A stretch of 12,446 nucleotides of DNA from positions 1-12,446 of the IMG/VR virus record IMGVR_UViG_2875718163_000001. The stretch is one strand, 5' to 3'. The notes below the pieces were generated by a model, which worked only from the letters and a program-made list of their open reading frames with translations, searched no databases and was not told the DNA's origin. Shown here one piece after another: positions 1,637 to 10,113 of this stretch. The position numbers and the translations under genes are program-made. Positions within the stretch are counted from its first letter, which is position 1. The number at the start of each line of letters is the position of its first letter. The DNA is from a virus (taxonomy: Duplodnaviria; Heunggongvirae; Uroviricota; Caudoviricetes).

Positions 1637-1873
1637 TTGGTTACCAACTTGTACCAGAACATGCGGGCCAATGCGCTGGCTGACGCGGAATTACGGCGCA
1701 AGGCTGCCGATGAACTGACCTGTATGACAGCGCGAATTAACCGTGGTGAGACGATACCTGAACCAGTAAAACAACTTCCTGTTATGGGCGGTAGACCTCT
1801 AAATCGTGCACAGGCTCTGGCGAAGATCGCAGAAATTAAAGCTAAGTTCGGACTGAAAGGAGCAAGTGTATGA
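1637..1873 (+). pseudogene. peaD: C-terminal fragment of lambda replication protein P; N-terminal ~2/3 deleted
   Basis: ORF ends ...LNRAQALAKIAEIKAKFGLKGASV, recalled as the lambda P C-terminus. Its stop overlaps the next ATG (ATGA at 1870-1873), as P/ren do in lambda. No ATG before codon 9; first in-frame start is TTG. Confidence 0.6.
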
Positions 1874-1962
1874 CGGGCAAAGAGGCAATTATTCATTACC
1901 TGGGGACGCATAAGAGCTTCTGTGCACAGGACGTTGCCGCGGTAACAGGCGCAACCGTAATC

Positions 1963-2390
1963 TGATCTTACCCAGCAATAGTGGACACGCGGCTAAGTGA
2001 GTAAACTCTCAGTCAGAGGTGACTCACATGACAAAAACAGTATCAACCAGTAAAAAACCCCGTAAACAGCATTCGCCTGAATTTCGCAGTGAAGCCCTGA
2101 AGCTTGCTGAACGCATCGGTGTTACTGCCGCAGCCCGTGAACTCAGCCTGTATGAATCACAACTCTACAACTGGCGCAGTAAACAGCAAAACTTTCATTC
2201 GCTGAAAGTGGAATGTATCCATGGAGAACACTTTATCAGCCGGGAAATAATGCGGGCAACGGTGTTTAATTATATCGAATGTGATTACAATCGGTGGCGG
2301 CGGCACAGTTGGTGTGGCGGCCTCAGTCCGGAACAATTTGAAAACAAGAACCTCGCTTAGGCCTGTGTCCATATTACGTGGGTAGGATCA
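1963..2390 (+). mobile_element. IS3-family element with a large internal deletion (428 bp retained), both terminal inverted repeats present
   Basis: Left end TGATCTTACCCAGCAATAGTGGACAC; right end reverse-complements to TGATCCTACCCACGTAATATGGACAC (imperfect terminal IRs). Internal ORF is IS3 OrfA N-terminus fused to OrfB C-terminus. Flanking triplets are ATC (1960-1962) and ACC (2391-2393), so a clean 3-bp target duplication is not seen. Confidence 0.88.
2028..2360 (+). pseudogene. In-frame fusion of IS3 OrfA N-terminus (HTH region) to the last ~50 aa of the OrfB transposase; catalytic domain absent
   Basis: [55 protein letters not shown] | [55 protein letters not shown]; junction near 2190-2193. 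Track ORF starts at an upstream GTG (2019); ATG at 2028 is the IS3 orfA start. Confidence 0.65.
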
Positions 2391-2670
2391 ACCAGCATAA
2401 ATCAGGCTGCGGCTAAAATGGCGCGGGCAGGAATCCTGGTCGTTGATGGTAAGGTCTGGCGAACGGTGTATTACCGGTTCGCTACCAGAGAAGAATGGGA
2501 AGGAAAGGTGAGCACGAATCTGATTTTTAAGGAGTGTCGCCAGAGTGCCGCGATGAAACGGGTATTGAGGGTATATAAAAGAACATCAATGGGAACACAA
2601 TGATGAAACAGGTGAGTTGAGTTCAAACTGTAGTACAATTCTCTCCAGTTTGAACAGGAAAGAATATGCT

Positions 2671-3003
2671 ATGAACCCTTATATTTATCTTGGTGGTGCA
2701 ATACTTGCAGAGGTCATTGGTACAACCTTAATGAAGTTTTCAGAAGGTTTTACACGGTTATGGCCATCTGTTGGTACAATTATTTGTTATTGTGCATCAT
2801 TCTGGTTATTAGCTCAGACGCTGGCTTATATTCCTACAGGGATTGCTTATGCTATCTGGTCAGGAGTCGGTATTGTCCTGATTAGCTTACTGTCATGGGG
2901 ATTTTTCGGCCAACGGCTGGACCTGCCAGCCATTATAGGCATGATGTTGATTTGTGCCGGTGTGTTGATTATTAATTTATTGTCACGAAGCACACCACAT
3001 TAA
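2671..3003 (+). CDS. emrE: Small multidrug resistance (SMR) efflux transporter EmrE
   Basis: 110-aa ORF MNPYIYLGGAILAEVIGTTLMKFSEGFTRLWPSVGTIICYCASFWLLAQTLAYIPTGIAYAIWSGVGIVLISLLSWGFFGQRLDLPAIIGMMLICAGVLIINLLSRSTPH, recognised as EmrE. Four hydrophobic helices with the conserved membrane Glu (..LAEVIG..). AGGA 12 nt upstream of ATG 2671; the track ORF from 2617 is an upstream extension. Confidence 0.93.
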   Translation: MNPYIYLGGAILAEVIGTTLMKFSEGFTRLWPSVGTIICYCASFWLLAQTLAYIPTGIAYAIWSGVGIVLISLLSWGFFGQRLDLPAIIGMMLICAGVLIINLLSRSTPH

Positions 3004-3033
3004 AATAATTTGTTTCTAAACGACTAAAATATG

Positions 3034-3074
3034 GAGGCTCTTATATTTATATGAGCCTCGTTTTATGCTTTTTG
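3034..3074 (+). terminator. Probable intrinsic terminator after emrE
   Basis: GAGGCTC (3034-3040) / GAGCCTC (3053-3059) perfect 7-bp stem with a 12-nt loop, followed by GTTTTATGCTTTTTG, 30 nt after the emrE stop. Confidence 0.5.
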
Positions 3075-3257
3075 TTAATGTCTTTATTTTTTATGTATTC
3101 TTTTGTGCTTTCAAGATTATGGCGTAAGAAAATTGCAATACGATTATTGTTGTATATTCAAGATAATGTGACCTTAATTGTCTTTTTAAATAAAAAATAA
3201 ACAAAAATTATATCCCACCACTAAGGTTTATAAAAGCATACGTTAGCAGGTGTCACC

Positions 3258-4784
3258 ATGAAAAAAGCCATAGCATATATGCGATTTTCATCACCAGGTC
3301 AGATGTCTGGCGACTCATTAAACCGACAGAGAAGACTTATTGCTGAATGGTTAAAGGTAAATAGTGATTATTATCTTGATACCATAACATATGAAGATTT
3401 AGGATTAAGTGCATTCAAAGGAAAGCATGCACAATCAGGAGCTTTTTCGGAATTTTTAGATGCTATAGAGCATGGTTATATATTGCCAGGAACTACATTG
3501 TTAGTTGAAAGTCTGGACAGACTTTCAAGAGAAAAAGTCGGTGAAGCGATTGAACGTCTGAAATTGATTTTGAATCACGGTATTGATGTTATAACTCTTT
3601 GCGACAATACAGTCTATAATATTGACTCTTTGAATGAGCCATATTCATTAATAAAAGCCATACTTATAGCACAAAGGGCAAATGAAGAAAGCGAGATAAA
3701 GTCAAGTCGGGTTAAATTATCATGGAAGAAAAAACGGCAGGATGCACTGGAATCAGGTACGATTATGACGGCGTCTTGTCCGAGATGGCTCTCCTTAGAT
3801 GACAAAAGAACGGCTTTTGTTCCAGACCCCGACAGGGTGAAAACTATTGAGCTAATTTTTAAACTCAGGATGGAAAGGCGCTCATTGAATGCAATAGCCA
3901 AGTATTTAAATGATCATGCTGTAAAGAATTTCTCAGGAAAAGAAAGTGCATGGGGACCTTCTGTAATTGAAAAATTATTAGCGAATAAAGCTCTGATAGG
4001 TATTTGCGTACCTTCATATCGTGCAAGAGGGAAAGGGATAAGTGAAATCGCTGGCTATTATCCCAGAGTCATATCAGATGATTTGTTTTACGCTGTACAG
4101 GAAATTCGGTTGGCACCTTTTGGTATTAGCAATAGTAGCAAGAATCCTATGCTAATAAATCTACTTCGAACAGTTATGAAGTGTGAGGCTTGTGGTAATA
4201 CCATGATTGTTCATGCGGTATCTGGAAGTTTGCATGGCTATTATGTTTGTCCGATGAGAAGATTACATCGATGTGACAGGCCATCAATAAAAAGAGATTT
4301 GGTTGATTATAATATCATTAATGAATTGCTTTTTAATTGTAGCAAAATTCAACCAGTTGAAAACAAGAAAGATGCTAATGAAACTTTAGAGTTAAAAATT
4401 ATTGAGCTTCAGATGAAAATTAATAATTTAATCGTTGCATTGTCTGTCGCGCCTGAAGTTACCGCTATAGCAGAGAAAATAAGACTATTAGATAAGGAAT
4501 TACGAAGGGCTTCGGTATCATTGAAAACTTTGAAGAGTAAAGGTGTAAATTCATTCAGTGATTTTTATGCTATTGACTTAACCAGTAAAAATGGACGAGA
4601 GTTATGCCGTACACTTGCCTATAAAACATTCGAAAAAATCATAATTAATACGGATAATAAAACCTGTGATATCTATTTTATGAATGGCATTGTTTTTAAA
4701 CACTATCCTTTAATGAAAGTAATATCCGCCCAGCAGGCGATAAGTGCTCTCAAATATATGGTTGATGGTGAGATTTATTTCTAA
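3258..4784 (+). CDS. ybcK: Large serine recombinase (resolvase catalytic domain + recombinase domain + zinc ribbon + coiled-coil tail)
   Basis: 508-aa ORF. N-terminal AIAYMRFSSPGQ (nucleophilic Ser context) and ..VESLDRLSR.. resolvase motifs; Cys cluster CEACGN...C..C..HRC; C-terminal Leu/Ile-rich heptad-like stretch. Visibly AT-rich codon usage unlike flanking phage genes. AGGTG 6 nt upstream of ATG. Confidence 0.9.
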   Translation: MKKAIAYMRFSSPGQMSGDSLNRQRRLIAEWLKVNSDYYLDTITYEDLGLSAFKGKHAQSGAFSEFLDAIEHGYILPGTTLLVESLDRLSREKVGEAIERLKLILNHGIDVITLCDNTVYNIDSLNEPYSLIKAILIAQRANEESEIKSSRVKLSWKKKRQDALESGTIMTASCPRWLSLDDKRTAFVPDPDRVKTIELIFKLRMERRSLNAIAKYLNDHAVKNFSGKESAWGPSVIEKLLANKALIGICVPSYRARGKGISEIAGYYPRVISDDLFYAVQEIRLAPFGISNSSKNPMLINLLRTVMKCEACGNTMIVHAVSGSLHGYYVCPMRRLHRCDRPSIKRDLVDYNIINELLFNCSKIQPVENKKDANETLELKIIELQMKINNLIVALSVAPEVTAIAEKIRLLDKELRRASVSLKTLKSKGVNSFSDFYAIDLTSKNGRELCRTLAYKTFEKIIINTDNKTCDIYFMNGIVFKHYPLMKVISAQQAISALKYMVDGEIYF

Positions 4785-4982
4785 ATAATGATCTCGGATT
4801 TTAAGTTATGCTATGGTGATAAAGTGCAAGACAGAATTAATTATCTTTGACGAAACTTAATGGGTAATTACTTTGTTTGCTCCCACAAGCGAGTTTTGTA
4901 CGGCTGTATTGGGGTAGTAAATGAGCTATACAATCTTAATCATTTGTTAGGTGAGAACTCTTGGTCGCAGATTCAAATACTG

Positions 4983-5032
4983 AAAATACGTGACAAATTA
5001 TTATGAGCAAAATGGTGTATGTCACGTATTTT
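4983..5032. repeat. Perfect 13-bp inverted repeat with 24-bp spacer (AAAATACGTGACA / TGTCACGTATTTT)
   Basis: Arms at 4983-4995 and 5020-5032 are exact reverse complements; read directly from the sequence. Lies ~200 bp downstream of ybcK and ~215 bp upstream of ybcL. Confidence 0.85.
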
Positions 5033-5248
5033 GAATGGTAGGTTAAAAAATAACACCGACTTTCGTAGGTGTTACTAATAATAAAGCAGAGTTTTTAGAT
5101 AGTATCAATGTGCTTTGTGTATATTGTGGCAAATAATTGGGTTGGGGGTACAATTGTGATTGCTTTTGCATGAACATTGCGCCTTTATGCATAATGAGAT
5201 AAAGGAATATCAAATAAAATAACGATAGGTCATAACAAAGAGGTTTTT

Positions 5249-5800
5249 ATGAAAACACTTATCGTTTCAACTGTATTGGCATTCATAACATTTTCTGCGC
5301 AGGCTGCAGCATTTCAGGTCACTAGTAATGAAATAAAAACAGGAGAGCAACTTACAACGTCTCATGTCTTTTCTGGATTTGGGTGTGAAGGTGGTAATAC
5401 ATCGCCCTCATTAACCTGGTCTGGTGTTCCTGAAGGTACCAAAAGCTTTGCCGTAACTGTATATGATCCAGATGCACCTACAGGCAGTGGTTGGTGGCAT
5501 TGGACTGTTGTTAATATTCCAGCAACAGTAACATATTTGCCCGTTGATGCAGGGAGACGTGATGGAACAAAACTGCCGACTGGTGCTGTTCAAGGCCGAA
5601 ATGATTTTGGCTATGCTGGGTTTGGTGGCGCATGTCCTCCTAAAGGAGATAAACCACATCATTACCAGTTTAAAGTATGGGCTCTAAAAACTGAAAAGAT
5701 TCCTGTAGATTCTAACTCCAGCGGAGCGTTAGTTGGTTATATGCTTAATGCTAATAAAATCGCAACCGCTGAGATAACACCAGTTTATGAGATAAAGTAG
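5249..5800 (+). CDS. ybcL: Periplasmic PEBP/RKIP-family protein (phosphatidylethanolamine-binding protein homologue)
   Basis: 183-aa ORF with signal peptide MKTLIVSTVLAFITFSAQA and PEBP signature VYDPDAPTGSGWWHWTVVNIP...GYAGFGGACPP..HHY. GAGG 5 nt upstream of ATG. Confidence 0.9.
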   Translation: MKTLIVSTVLAFITFSAQAAAFQVTSNEIKTGEQLTTSHVFSGFGCEGGNTSPSLTWSGVPEGTKSFAVTVYDPDAPTGSGWWHWTVVNIPATVTYLPVDAGRRDGTKLPTGAVQGRNDFGYAGFGGACPPKGDKPHHYQFKVWALKTEKIPVDSNSSGALVGYMLNANKIATAEITPVYEIK

Positions 5801-5809
5801 GGTGAGAGT

Positions 5810-6607
5810 ATGCTGGCAAGAGGTAAGACTAACTTAAAGATCGAAGAAATACGGATGCATAAACATCATGAGATTCATAGGGTTAAGCCTCTTATGCCAG
5901 CTTTGTGTCGTATCCGTCAGGGAAAGAAAGTTATCAATTGGGAGACGCATACTTTAACTGTTGATAATAATCAAATAATATTATTTCCTTGTGGTTATGA
6001 ATTTTATATTGAGAATTATCCTGAAGCAGGGCTTTATCTTGCAGAAATGCTTTACTTACCCATTGATTTAATTGAGAGTTTCCAAAAACTTTATACGGTA
6101 ACTGATCAAATACGTAACAAAACAAGTTTCTTTTTACCTCAGAATCCTGAGTTAATATATTGTTGGGAGCAACTAAAAACATCTGTTTCCCGAGGCTTCT
6201 CAACTAAAATTCAGGAGCACTTAGCAATGGGCGTTCTACTTTCGTTAGGAGTGAATCATGTTAATCATTTACTTTTATCATATAGTAAACAATCATTGAT
6301 AAGTCGTTGTTATAACCTGCTGCTATCCGAACCCGGCACAAAATGGACAGCAAACAAGGTTGCTCGATATCTCTACATTTCTGTTTCTACATTACATCGC
6401 CGTCTAGCAAGCGAGGGGGTAAGTTTCCAAAGTATACTGGACGATGTGAGGTTAAATAATGCGTTGTCTGCTATACAAACGACGGTAAAACCTATAAGCG
6501 AGATTGCCAGAGAAAATGGTTATAAGTGTCCTTCTCGTTTTACTGAAAGATTTCATAATCGTTTTAATATAACACCAAGAGAGATAAGAAAAGCTTCCAG
6601 AGAGTAA
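5810..6607 (+). CDS. ybcM: AraC/XylS-family transcriptional regulator
   Basis: 265-aa ORF with C-terminal double-HTH AraC domain (..[44 protein letters not shown]...[25 protein letters not shown]). Starts 9 nt after the ybcL stop, so probably co-transcribed. Confidence 0.88.
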
Positions 6608-6671
6608 AAGTGTTTTAAGAAGGAGCAATTCTATCGATTTTGATTTTGGGAAATCAACACGGCATAATTAT

Positions 6672-6700
6672 GTCACCGGAGCCTGAACAACTCCGGTGAC
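6672..6700 (+). terminator. Strong hairpin (10-bp perfect stem GTCACCGGAG / CTCCGGTGAC, 9-nt loop); possible terminator or boundary element
   Basis: Read directly. Lies 65 nt after the ybcM stop and ~120 nt before the NinB-like gene, where lambda places tR2. The trailing sequence TTCTGCGCT is only weakly U-rich, so the intrinsic-terminator call is uncertain. Confidence 0.4.
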
Positions 6701-6723
6701 TTCTGCGCTAAACGGGGACGTTT

Positions 6724-6825
6724 ATGCGCACATACAATCCAAACTCTCTTCTCCCTTCACAGATGCAGAAATGCACCTGCAATTCTTTGCATCTAGCGTT
6801 TGACCTCTGCGGAGGGGAAGCGTGA
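6724..6825 (+). CDS. ylcH: Small ORF (33 aa) immediately upstream of and overlapping ybcN start
   Basis: ATG 6724 ... TGA 6823-6825 encodes [33 protein letters not shown]; its stop overlaps the ybcN GTG (GTGA). Matches the size and position I recall for ylcH; no independent coding support. Confidence 0.3.
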
Positions 6826-7277
6826 ACCTCTCACAAGACGGCATCAAATTACATCGCGGCAACTTCACCGCTATCGGTCGGCAGATCCAGCCTTATCTGG
6901 AGGAGGGCAAATGCTTTCGCATGGTGCTTAAACCGTGGCGTGAGAAACGCAGTCTTTCCCAGAATGCACTCAGCCACATGTGGTACAGCGAAATCAGTGA
7001 ATACCTCATCAGCAGGGGTAAAACGTTCGCCACTCCAGCTTGGGTAAAAGATGCTCTCAAACACACATATCTCGGTTATGAAACCAAAGACCTGGTTGAT
7101 GTCGTAACCGGTGATATCACCACTATCCAGTCGTTACGCCATACCTCCGATCTTGATACCGGAGAGATGTATGTCTTCCTGTGTAAGGTTGAAGCCTGGG
7201 CGATGAATATTGGTTGCCACCTGACTATTCCACAGAGCTGCGAGTTCCAGCTGCTGCGCGACAAGCAGGAGGCGTAA
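6822..7277 (+). CDS. ybcN: NinB-like (lambda Orf/NinB family) recombination-associated protein
   Basis: 151-aa ORF with GTG start preceded by GGAGGGG. Motif ..[18 protein letters not shown].. resembles the lambda NinB ..RSLDQN..LW.. region. First gene of a tightly overlapped nin-type operon. Confidence 0.85.
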
Positions 7278-7447
7278 TGGCTACACCGCTTATTCGTGTC
7301 ATGAACGGACACATCTACAGAGTACCAAATCGTCGTAAGCGTAAACCTGAGCTGAAGCCATCCGAAATACCAACACTGCTCGGATATACCGCCAGCTTGG
7401 TTGATAAAAAATGGTTGCGACTGGCAGCAAGGAGGAGTCATGGCTGA
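7277..7447 (+). CDS. ninE: NinE-family small protein
   Basis: 56-aa [62 protein letters not shown] overlaps the ybcN stop (TAATG). The track ORF from 7214 is an upstream extension. Confidence 0.8.
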   Translation: MATPLIRVMNGHIYRVPNRRKRKPELKPSEIPTLLGYTASLVDKKWLRLAARRSHG

Positions 7448-7730
7448 TTTGAGAAAAGCAGCGCGTGGTCGGGAATGCCAGGTAAGAATCCCTGGCGTAT
7501 GTAATGGCAACCCTGAAACGTCTGTACTGGCACATATCCGGCTGACTGGATTGTGCGGCACCGGTACGAAACCGCCAGACCTGATTGCCACCATTGCATG
7601 TTCTGCCTGCCACGACGAAATCGACCGCCGCACGCATTTTGTTGACGCTGGATATGCAAAAGAATGCGCGCTGGAAGGTATGGCGAGAACACAGGTTATC
7701 TGGCTGAAAGAGGGGGTTATTAAGGCGTGA
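7440..7730 (+). CDS. ybcO: Cysteine-rich nin-region protein (DUF1364-like, putative nuclease)
   Basis: 96-aa [26 protein letters not shown]...CSACHDEID.. with AGGAGG upstream. Overlaps the ninE end by 8 nt and its stop overlaps the rusA GTG. Confidence 0.8.
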
Positions 7731-8089
7731 ATACCTACAGCATCACATTACCCTGGCCTCCGAGCAATAATCGCTATTACCGCCATAATCGCGGGCGCAC
7801 GCACGTCAGCGCAGAGGGGCAGGCATACCGCGATAACGTCGCCCGAATCATTAAAAACGCAATGCTGGATATCGGCCTGGCTATGCCTGTGAAAATCCGC
7901 ATTGAGTGCCACATGCCGGATCGCCGTCGCCGTGACCTGGATAATCTGCAAAAAGCCGCTTTTGACGCACTCACTAAAGCAGGTTTCTGGCTGGATGATG
8001 CTCAGGTCGTTGATTACCGCGTTGTGAAGATGCCTGTTACCAAAGGTGGGAGGCTGGAACTGACCATCACCGAAATGGGGAATGAATGA
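7727..8089 (+). CDS. rusA: RusA Holliday-junction resolvase (endodeoxyribonuclease)
   Basis: 120-aa [123 protein letters not shown], recognised as RusA with the acidic catalytic residues (..DRRRRDLDN.., ..DD..). GTG start overlapping the ybcO stop. Confidence 0.9.
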
Positions 8090-8226
8090 TGTTTGAGTTT
8101 AATATGGCAGAACTTCTTCGCCACCGCTGGGGGCGTCTGCGCTTATATCGTTTCCCCGGTTCTGTTTTGACCGATTACCGAATACTGAAGAATTACGCCA
8201 AAACCCTGACAGGAGCAGGAGTATGA
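8086..8226 (+). CDS. ylcG: Small nin-region ORF (46 aa)
   Basis: ATGATG start overlapping the rusA stop; encodes [46 protein letters not shown]. Below the ORF-track length cut-off; supported only by position and coupling. Confidence 0.5.
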
Positions 8227-8311
8227 AGTCAGAGATAACAATCAACTAATACTGTTTTGTTGATTTTTGCTTGTAATTGGCGTTCTGGTCTGATTTTTGT
8301 GGAGTAAGTTG

Positions 8312-8695
8312 ATGCGTGATATTCAGATGGTTCTTGAGCGTTGGGGAGCGTGGGCGGCTAATAATCATGAAGATGTGACCTGGTCGTCCATTGCCGCCGG
8401 TTTTAAGGGATTAATTACTTCAAAAGTAAAATCTCGCCCGCAATGTTGTGACGATGACGCGATGATCATTTGCGGGTGCATGGCCCGTCTGAAAAAGAAC
8501 AACAGCGATTTGCACGATTTATTAGTAGATTATTATGTAGTCGGTATGACATTCATGTCACTGGCAGGTAAGCATTGCTGCTCTGATGGTTATATCGGGA
8601 AAAGGTTACAGAAGGCTGAGGGCATAATTGAAGGGATGTTAATGGCATTAGATATCCGGTTAGAGATGGATATCGTTGTTAATAACTCTAATTAA
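8312..8695 (+). CDS. quuD: Late-gene antiterminator Q homologue (phage 82/21 Q type)
   Basis: 127-aa [25 protein letters not shown]... with Cys-rich region (..[18 protein letters not shown].., ..HCCSDG..). GGAG 8 nt upstream of ATG 8312; the track ORF from TTG 8297 is an extension. Sits where lambdoid Q genes sit. Confidence 0.85.
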
Positions 8696-8834
8696 TATGC
8701 CAATTGTTTACTAAAAATTATTAAAAATGGGGCGTTGAGACGCCCCCAAAAATAAAGGGTAATATATAACAGAAGGTTTATATAGTTAGAAGCAAGGTTG
8801 TGCTTCTAAAGGAAGTGGCTTGAGGGAGCCACTT

Positions 8835-8876
8835 ATATGTTGGGGAGGCAACGCCTCCCGCAACATATCTTTTTCG
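8835..8876 (+). terminator. Intrinsic terminator: long hairpin followed by CTTTTTCG
   Basis: ATATGTTGGGGAGGC (8835-8849) pairs with GCCTCCCGCAACATAT (8853-8868), with a 7-bp perfect GC-rich core, a 3-nt loop and one bulge, then a T-run. 140 nt downstream of quuD. Confidence 0.6.
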
Positions 8877-8884
8877 TAATCAGA

Positions 8885-8944
8885 TTAGAACTGGTAAACC
8901 AGACCTACAGCAACGATGTCATCAGTGCTTACACCGAGTGCTTT
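8885..8944 (-). pseudogene. nmpC: 3' stub (~19 codons) of an OmpC/OmpF-family porin gene
   Basis: Minus-strand reading gives ...KALGVSTDDIVAVGLVYQF-stop, the characteristic porin C-terminus ending in Phe. Porin-like sequence is lost upstream of this, so only the gene tail survives. Confidence 0.5.
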
Positions 8945-9095
8945 AGGGAAGGTGCGAATAAGCGGGGAAATTCTTCTCGGCTGACTCAGTCATTTCATTT
9001 CTTCATGTTTGAGCCGATTTTTTCTCCCGTAAATGCCTTGAATCAGCCTATTTAGACCGTTTCTTCGCCATTTAAGGCGTTATCCCCAGTTTTTA

Positions 9096-9395
9096 GTGAG
9101 ATCTCTCCCACTGACGTATCATTTGGTCCGCCCGAAACAGGTTGGAAAAAATGCCAGAGACTCCGCTGAAGTGGTGGAAACCGCATTCTGTACTTTCGTG
9201 CTGTCGCGGATCGCAGGTGAAATTGCCAGTATTCTCGACGGGATCCCCCTGTCGGTGCAGCGGCGTTTTCCGGAACTGGAAAACCGACATGTTGATTTCC
9301 TGAAACGGGATATCATCAAAGCCATGAACAAAGCAGCCGCGCTGGATGAACTGATACCGGGGTTGCTGAGTGAATATATCGAACAGTCAGGTTAA
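9096..9395 (+). pseudogene. nohD: C-terminal fragment of terminase small subunit Nu1; N-terminal DNA-binding half missing
   Basis: From ~9147 the ORF reads [82 protein letters not shown], recalled as the lambda Nu1 C-terminus. Upstream codons are unrelated and the frame is closed by TAG at 9093-9095. The 26-nt overlap with the following A start is as in lambda. Confidence 0.75.
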
Positions 9396-10113
9396 CAGGC
9401 TGCGGCATTTTGTCCGCGCCGGGCTTCGCTCACTGTTCAGGCCGGAGCCACAGACCGCCGTTGAATGGGCGGATGCTAATTACTATCTCCCGAAAGAATC
9501 CGCATACCAGGAAGGGCGCTGGGAAACACTGCCCTTTCAGCGGGCCATCATGAATGCGATGGGCAGCGACTACATCCGTGAGGTGAATGTGGTGAAGTCT
9601 GCCCGTGTCGGTTATTCCAAAATGCTGCTGGGTGTTTATGCCTACTTTATAGAGCATAAGCAGCGCAACACCCTTATTCCAGCTGGCTTCGTGGCTGTTT
9701 TCAACAGTGATGAGTCATCGTGGCATCTCGTTGAAGATCATCGGGGTAAAACGGTTTATGACGTGGCTTCCGGCAACGCGTTATTTATTTCTGAACTCGG
9801 TCCGTTACCGGAAAATGTTACCTGGTTATCGCCGGAAGGGGAGTTTCAGAAGTGGAACGGTACAGCCTGGGTGAAAGATGCAGAAGCAGAAAAACTGTTC
9901 CGGATTCGGGAGGCGGAAGAAACAAAAAACAGCCTGATGCAGGTAGCCAGTGAGCATATTGCGCCACTTCAGGATGCTGTAGATCTGGAAATCGCAACGG
10001 AGGAAGAAACCTCATTGCTGGAAGCCTGGAAAAAATATCGGGTGTTGCTGAACCGTGTTGATACATCAACTGCACCTGATATTGAGTGGCCTACGAACCC
10101 TGTCAGGGAGTAA
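9370..10113 (+). pseudogene. tfaD: Chimeric ORF: terminase large subunit A N-terminus (~103 aa) fused in frame to the C-terminal ~145 aa of a tail-fibre assembly protein (Tfa)
   Basis: [33 protein letters not shown]...[12 protein letters not shown] is lambda gpA as I recall it. From [29 protein letters not shown]... to ...[13 protein letters not shown] is Tfa family. Junction at about 9678/9679. Confidence 0.8.
9949..10089 (+). repeat. Direct repeat copy 1 (~141 bp, Tfa C-terminal coding segment)
   Basis: AGTGAGCATATTGCGCCACTTCAGGATGCTGTAGATCTGGAAATCGCAACGGAGGAAGAA... recurs at 10996-11136 with scattered substitutions. Confidence 0.8.

Follow-up and report, generated by a model that had tools for sequence, protein, structure and literature searches.

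An IS3 copy of only 428 nt, with both of its ends in place and a single fused reading frame between them, interrupts the gene renD in the DNA analysed here. The question raised by this locus is whether such an element exists in an organism, as a miniature transposable element or as the relic of a deletion, or whether it was produced when the sequence was put together. The window, that is, the whole stretch of 12,446 nt under analysis, was identified from its ORFs and from annotated K-12 records as the defective lambdoid prophage DLP12 of Escherichia coli K-12, and the genes intD, exoD', P', renD, emrE, ybcK to quuD and nohD' to appY were recognised in it. Position 1 is the final base of the intD stop codon, and the last position, 12446, closes that of appY. 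Such limits suggest a prophage call cut at gene boundaries and not an arbitrary genomic slice. A BLAST comparison with the K-12 chromosome NZ_CP026361.1 gave two colinear blocks, 1–2191 (99.9% identity) and 2192–9145 (100%), between which K-12 alone has a further 830 nt, the interior of the renD IS3 copy. The single-copy DNA at 2391–8940 was found at one place per K-12 genome and was 100% intact.

Two small groups of differences from K-12 were also observed. At 1485–1490, in the exoD pseudogene, GTACTG of K-12 is replaced by ATCTGG in the window, a six-base scramble that leaves composition and length unchanged; it was present in 0 of 5,426 complete E. coli genomes, with a best match of 98.6%, and is private to this record. 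At 9765–9775, where terminase and tail-fibre-assembly pseudogenes meet, five substitutions are clustered at 3-nt spacing. Four of them (9765–9774) are the bases of the Qin paralogue tfaQ. These Qin-type bases recur in a handful of assemblies of laboratory strains (J53-hybrid, TOP10, XL1-Blue, XL10-Gold and Origami2), and they could stem from paralogue read mixing or from gene conversion. The fifth, G to A at 9775, occurred in none of the 5,426 genomes and is private. The changes at the two places would agree with an imperfect consensus sequence and equally with true gene conversion accompanied by point mutation, and they do not settle how the window came about.

Anatomy of the 428-nt element

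The element is colinear with the 1258-nt IS3 of K-12 renD. IS3 nt 1–229 correspond to window positions 1963–2191 and nt 1060–1258 to positions 2192–2390, with 100% identity and no mismatches in both retained parts (Table 1). The prefix of 229 nt and the suffix of 199 nt add up to 428 nt with an overlap of 0, leaving one clean internal deletion of 830 nt (IS3 nt 230–1059); the first-pass annotation had read the element in this way, and the alignment agrees. The junction is blunt, with a microhomology of 0 nt. IS3 nt 229 is an A, so the junction is equally readable as nt 228 followed by one filler A. Both terminal inverted repeats had been described as retained, and both are identical to those of IS3: their arms of 39 nt are imperfect (72% complementary), starting with TG and ending with CA, as in the IS3 family. 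The insertion point and its flanks are the same as in K-12, where a full-length IS3 occupies this very position in renD, so the statement that K-12 has such a copy in ren was right. Phage PhiR70_1 shows the uninterrupted site in its ren gene, GTAACCAGC. The bases flanking the IS3 are ATC and ACC, which would make a 3-bp target duplication off by one base, and K-12 is identical there.

Table 1. Features of the renD IS3 remnant and of the second junction, in window coordinates
Feature	Position	Strand	Remarks
renD 5' fragment, IS3-interrupted	1870..1962	+	identical to K-12, annotated 'protein ren, missing C-terminus'
Putative left target-duplication copy ATC, imperfect	1960..1962	+	last 3 nt of renD 5' fragment
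IS3 remnant, nt 1–229 + 1060–1258	1963..2390	+	100% identity to K-12 renD IS3
IS3 left inverted repeat (IRL)	1963..2001	+	IS3 nt 1–39
IS3 right inverted repeat (IRR)	2352..2390	+	IS3 nt 1220–1258
Deletion junction, IS3 nt 229/1060	2191..2192	.	blunt, no shared bases
Fusion ORF, 110 aa	2028..2360	+	OrfA 1–55 (HTH part), then OrfB 234–288 (rve_2 tail)
renD 3' fragment	2391..2603	+	first 3 nt ACC (2391–2393) would be the right target-duplication copy
First 199 nt of IS5 (interrupts nmpC in K-12)	8947..9145	.	rest of IS5 and 5.3 kb beyond absent
Second junction: extra A (9146), then nohD	9146..9147	.	232 nt from right edge of 244-nt nohD/nohA repeat

The ORF runs from an ATG at 2028 to a TAG at 2358–2360, giving 110 aa, or 113 aa when read from a GTG at 2019. 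The frame of OrfB is kept behind residues 1–55 of OrfA because the loss of 830 nt compensates the natural −1 offset of orfB. The product had been described as OrfA' joined in frame to 'OrfB and lacking the DDE catalytic core, which holds: the frames align and the rve domain is deleted. The OrfB tail is kept as well, at 55 residues (234–288) where about 50 had been given. With Pfam, the fusion matched a truncated HTH_Tnp_1 at residues 12–54 (27.2 bits, cut-off 24.1) and rve_2 at 56–109. The corresponding matches in the intact IS3 were HTH_Tnp_1 at 12–78 of OrfA and, in OrfB, HTH_21 at 53–102, rve at 126–222 and rve_2 at 231–287. The fusion is thus predicted to retain the N-terminal HTH of OrfA regulators (HTH_Tnp_1, 12–54). 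Missing from it are OrfA 56–99, the frameshift region, HTH_21, the rve core and all three DDE residues; the catalytic E, in the motif VESFF, is encoded 7 nt upstream of the right breakpoint and so is deleted. Of the characters of the IS3 family, the element lacks the orfA/orfB pair with its −1 frameshift and the DDE (rve) transposase. In IS911, OrfA contains a leucine zipper needed for multimerisation and for dimeric binding of the ends (PMC2909936), and by homology with IS911 the missing OrfA 56–99 would be the leucine-zipper half of the protein (PMC2909936). The fusion has no such region after its HTH.

The orfA promoter-proximal region was also said to have been preserved. The native 65 nt upstream are kept, by identity, and a consensus scan of the retained left end found no sigma-70-like promoter. 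The deleted interval, IS3 nt 230–1059, matches no ORF or element boundary (orfA occupies 66–365, and orfB ends at 1228).

Position of the breakpoints and occurrence elsewhere

The window contains a second blunt deletion relative to K-12, at 9145/9147, where 6,341 nt (~6.3 kb) are absent and one extra, untemplated A stands at 9146. The absent DNA extends from IS5 nt 200 through nmpC, essD, rrrD, rzpD, bor, ybcV, ybcW and ylcI into the 5' part of nohD. On the nohD side, the breakpoint lies in a stretch of 244 nt that DLP12 nohD and Qin nohA share exactly and that is the longest exact run of a 1,080-nt, 97% repeat. All four breakpoints of the two deletions are therefore located in multi-copy DNA. 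Counted from the retained single-copy side, they lie 229 nt (left) and 199 nt (right) deep in IS3, 199 nt deep in IS5 on its left side and 232 nt deep in the nohD/nohA repeat. The middle block, 2192–9145, begins and ends with exactly 199 nt of repeat, and each long exact repeat in the region (IS3, IS5 and nohD/nohA) is broken. By simple arithmetic, random placement would put all four breakpoints in these repeats with a probability of 3.6e-4, and all four at 195–235 nt from the facing edge with one of about 1.5e-9 (order 1e-9).

Nothing inside IS3 would single out position 229 or position 1060, because the K-12 copies of IS3 are internally identical. A copy-specific SNP was considered as the reason why the left arm measures 229 and not 199 nt and was rejected: the yaiT and eaeH copies equal the renD copy, apart from the initial 3 nt in eaeH.

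The shortened allele was then sought in other sequences. Megablast against 5,426 complete E. coli genomes, with 30,276 IS3-matching places, found the 428 nt uninterrupted in none, and all 302 of the 302 genomes with matching flanks had a full 1258-nt IS3. Exact look-up of the 110- and 113-aa products gave no match for either among ~15 billion proteins or at 153 billion gene positions. None of the GTDB representative genomes, the JGI metagenomes or IMG/VR contained the 41-mer spanning the IS3 junction. Likewise, the second junction was not found in complete E. coli genomes or in IMG/VR, and exact look-up of the ORF that crosses it gave no match. No IS3 remnant shorter than 600 nt with both ends was found in the best 30 of 41 query-covering places. 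Short-span hits of 432, 552 and 746 nt were discarded as candidate mini-IS3 elements, each being made up of the adjoining ends, right and left, of two neighbouring full IS3 copies; the hits of 525 and 580 nt carried two transposase annotations. K-12 relatives have five full-length IS3 copies.

A homology search with the fusion protein returned other in-frame OrfA'-'OrfB fusions, each a singleton with breakpoints of its own, so that these proteins form no conserved family. In the K-12-like chromosome CP022466.1, the IS3 in eaeH consists of nt 1–268, a literal N and nt 1001–1258. The N, position 1704 of the interval 440054–443485, is an explicit scaffold gap, and the 143-aa product, which NCBI and UniRef list as 'IS3 family transposase', is a database artefact. 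In CXWS01000059.1, a contig of a short-read draft, IS3 nt 1–297 are joined bluntly to nt 1137–1258. Genuine shortened copies occur in finished genomes: strain I4 (NZ_CP195978.1) has an IS3 of 786 nt, made of nt 1–558 and about 1026–1258 with a 3-nt overlap, and P276M (NZ_CP044293.1) one of 1119 nt, in which nt 1–263 are followed by 72 unrelated nt and nt 475–1258.

Origin of the shortened IS3

We favour the reading, with a probability of roughly 0.6, that the 428-nt element is the renD IS3 of K-12 DLP12 whose middle was lost when two contigs were joined directly over a collapsed repeat. It is preferred because all four breakpoints lie about one read length inside multi-copy repeats; the long repeats of the region are hit and the single-copy DNA at 2391–8940 is intact, the distribution that characterises collapsed repeats. 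From this distribution, together with the anatomy of the element, the uniqueness of its junction and the analogue with an explicit gap, we infer that assembly was the cause. The record would have been built from short reads, with contigs anchored in single-copy DNA reaching ~200–230 nt, about one read length, into IS3, IS5 and nohD/nohA. The contig ends would then have been abutted with no gap or with a one-base filler. On these assumptions, the in-frame OrfA'-'OrfB ORF would be a one-in-three accident of where the contigs ended, and the organism itself would carry a normal 1258-nt IS3 in renD. The blunt first junction, the second junction, blunt apart from one untemplated A, and the occurrence of these junctions in no other sequence searched also argue for assembly, and both junctions are compatible with a one-base A filler, which we offer as a suggestion only. 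By analogy, CP022466.1 and CXWS01000059.1 point in the same direction, as may the Qin-type bases at 9765–9774 if they came from paralogue read mixing.

Several observations stand against an assembly artefact. No N or other gap marker is present within the window. The four depths of 199, 199, 229 and 232 nt are unequal, and a simple k−1 rule therefore fails. Also absent are the 5.3 kb of single-copy DNA that separate IS5 from nohD, so that a dropped contig or a real deletion is needed in addition. Finally, finished genomes do contain IS3 copies with real internal deletions, as in strain I4.

A real, private deletion is the rival that deserves most weight, although we consider it rather unlikely. 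On that account, illegitimate recombination or end-joining spontaneously removed IS3 nt 230–1059 in a K-12 derivative and left behind, at the parental site, a dead, non-autonomous remnant that still has both inverted repeats; the ORF would be a by-product without selected function. The given sequence does contain the deletion and has no gap marker, the copies of I4 (786 nt) and P276M (1119 nt) demonstrate that IS3 can be shortened internally in finished genomes, and in-frame OrfA'-'OrfB fusion proteins turn up sporadically in public data. Yet the junction has 0 nt of microhomology, against 3 nt in I4, the allele was found nowhere else among the collections searched, and a two-ended IS3 remnant of less than 600 nt was likewise missing from the best 30 of 41 places. 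The second blunt deletion, whose ends are also ~200–230 nt inside repeats, would have to have arisen alongside, and there is no biological reason for such a pattern. A rearrangement mediated by the IS3 transposase was rejected as a cause, since both ends of the element are intact and both breakpoints are internal. Deliberate engineering or editing, for instance to knock out the IS3 transposase in frame and remove part of the DLP12 lysis genes, or a later alteration of the sequence, appears improbable. Two blunt junctions would suit it, and so would a deletion that is in frame, as is common in designed knockouts, as would the scramble at 1485–1490 and the lone substitution at 9775, found in 0 of 5,426 genomes. 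However, the breakpoints respect no ORF or element boundary and are accompanied by no scar or cassette, targeting one among five identical IS3 copies is impractical, and a designed deletion that begins 199 nt into IS5 makes no sense.

The first-pass annotation had gone further and proposed a derived biological allele of the K-12 insertion, in effect a MITE-like mini-IS3, that full-length IS3 copies could mobilise in trans and whose HTH fusion could inhibit transposition. The derived allele is not supported, and we regard the functional reading as very unlikely. Neither the inverted repeats nor the OrfA HTH is damaged, and the five full-length IS3 copies of K-12 relatives could serve as a source of transposase. 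Against mobilisation, no second copy was found, and the sole copy sits at the parental site between parental flanks, with no sign of movement. The IS911 transposase prefers to act in cis, which would further limit mobilisation in trans. Inhibition has a precedent in that IS3 OrfA and OrfB are reported as inhibitors of transposition (Sekine et al, 1997, as cited in PMC5771124), but the idea is weakened by the loss from the fusion of OrfA 56–99, the leucine-zipper region required for multimerisation by IS911 homology (PMC2909936). Analogous fusions, moreover, are all singletons with differing breakpoints. The element itself is probably not real: with a junction known from no other sequence and four breakpoints about one read length into repeats, the description of a biological 'miniature IS3' allele is probably wrong. 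That the deletion is real and also gave a K-12 derivative a functional, mobilisable mini-IS3, its chimera occupying IS3 ends and damping transposition, seems barely credible, and the prospect of any function for the 428-nt element or its ORF is very slight.

Contig ends abutted across collapsed repeats thus call for caution, as they can yield a 'miniature IS' with a tidy in-frame transposase fusion, and such ORFs enter protein databases as 'IS3 family transposase', as happened with CP022466.1. If the deletion is real after all, the element would still be no more than the dead relic of an insertion known from K-12 and would illustrate at most the decay of IS3 by internal deletion, which is already evident from finished genomes.

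Comparison with known elements

The closest known relative is the renD IS3 of K-12 (insE/insF; IS3 family, IS3 group), with which the window has the insertion site, the flanks, the 39-nt inverted repeats and the start of orfA in common. Relative to that copy it is without nt 230–1059, encoding the C-terminal half of OrfA, the −1 frameshift region, HTH_21 and the rve core. Residues 1–55 of the fusion are identical to the N-terminal HTH_Tnp_1 segment of IS3 OrfA; compared with the OrfA regulators of IS3 and IS911, the leucine-zipper half has been exchanged for a 55-residue rve_2 tail of OrfB.

Like MITEs and other non-autonomous IS derivatives, the element has terminal inverted repeats, no transposase and a length of a few hundred bp. 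MITEs, in contrast, are present as multiple dispersed copies with their own target duplications, whereas the element in the window is a single copy at the parental site; it shares with them two ends without a transposase and not the several dispersed copies with independent target duplications. The element also resembles those of CP022466.1 and CXWS01000059.1. As in these two, both IS3 ends are found at a genuine insertion site, the interior is gone, ~120–300 nt remain on each side, and the result is a singleton with a probably accidental in-frame OrfA'-'OrfB ORF called as a protein. The breakpoints differ from case to case, and the junction is marked by an N in CP022466.1 but unmarked at both places in the window.
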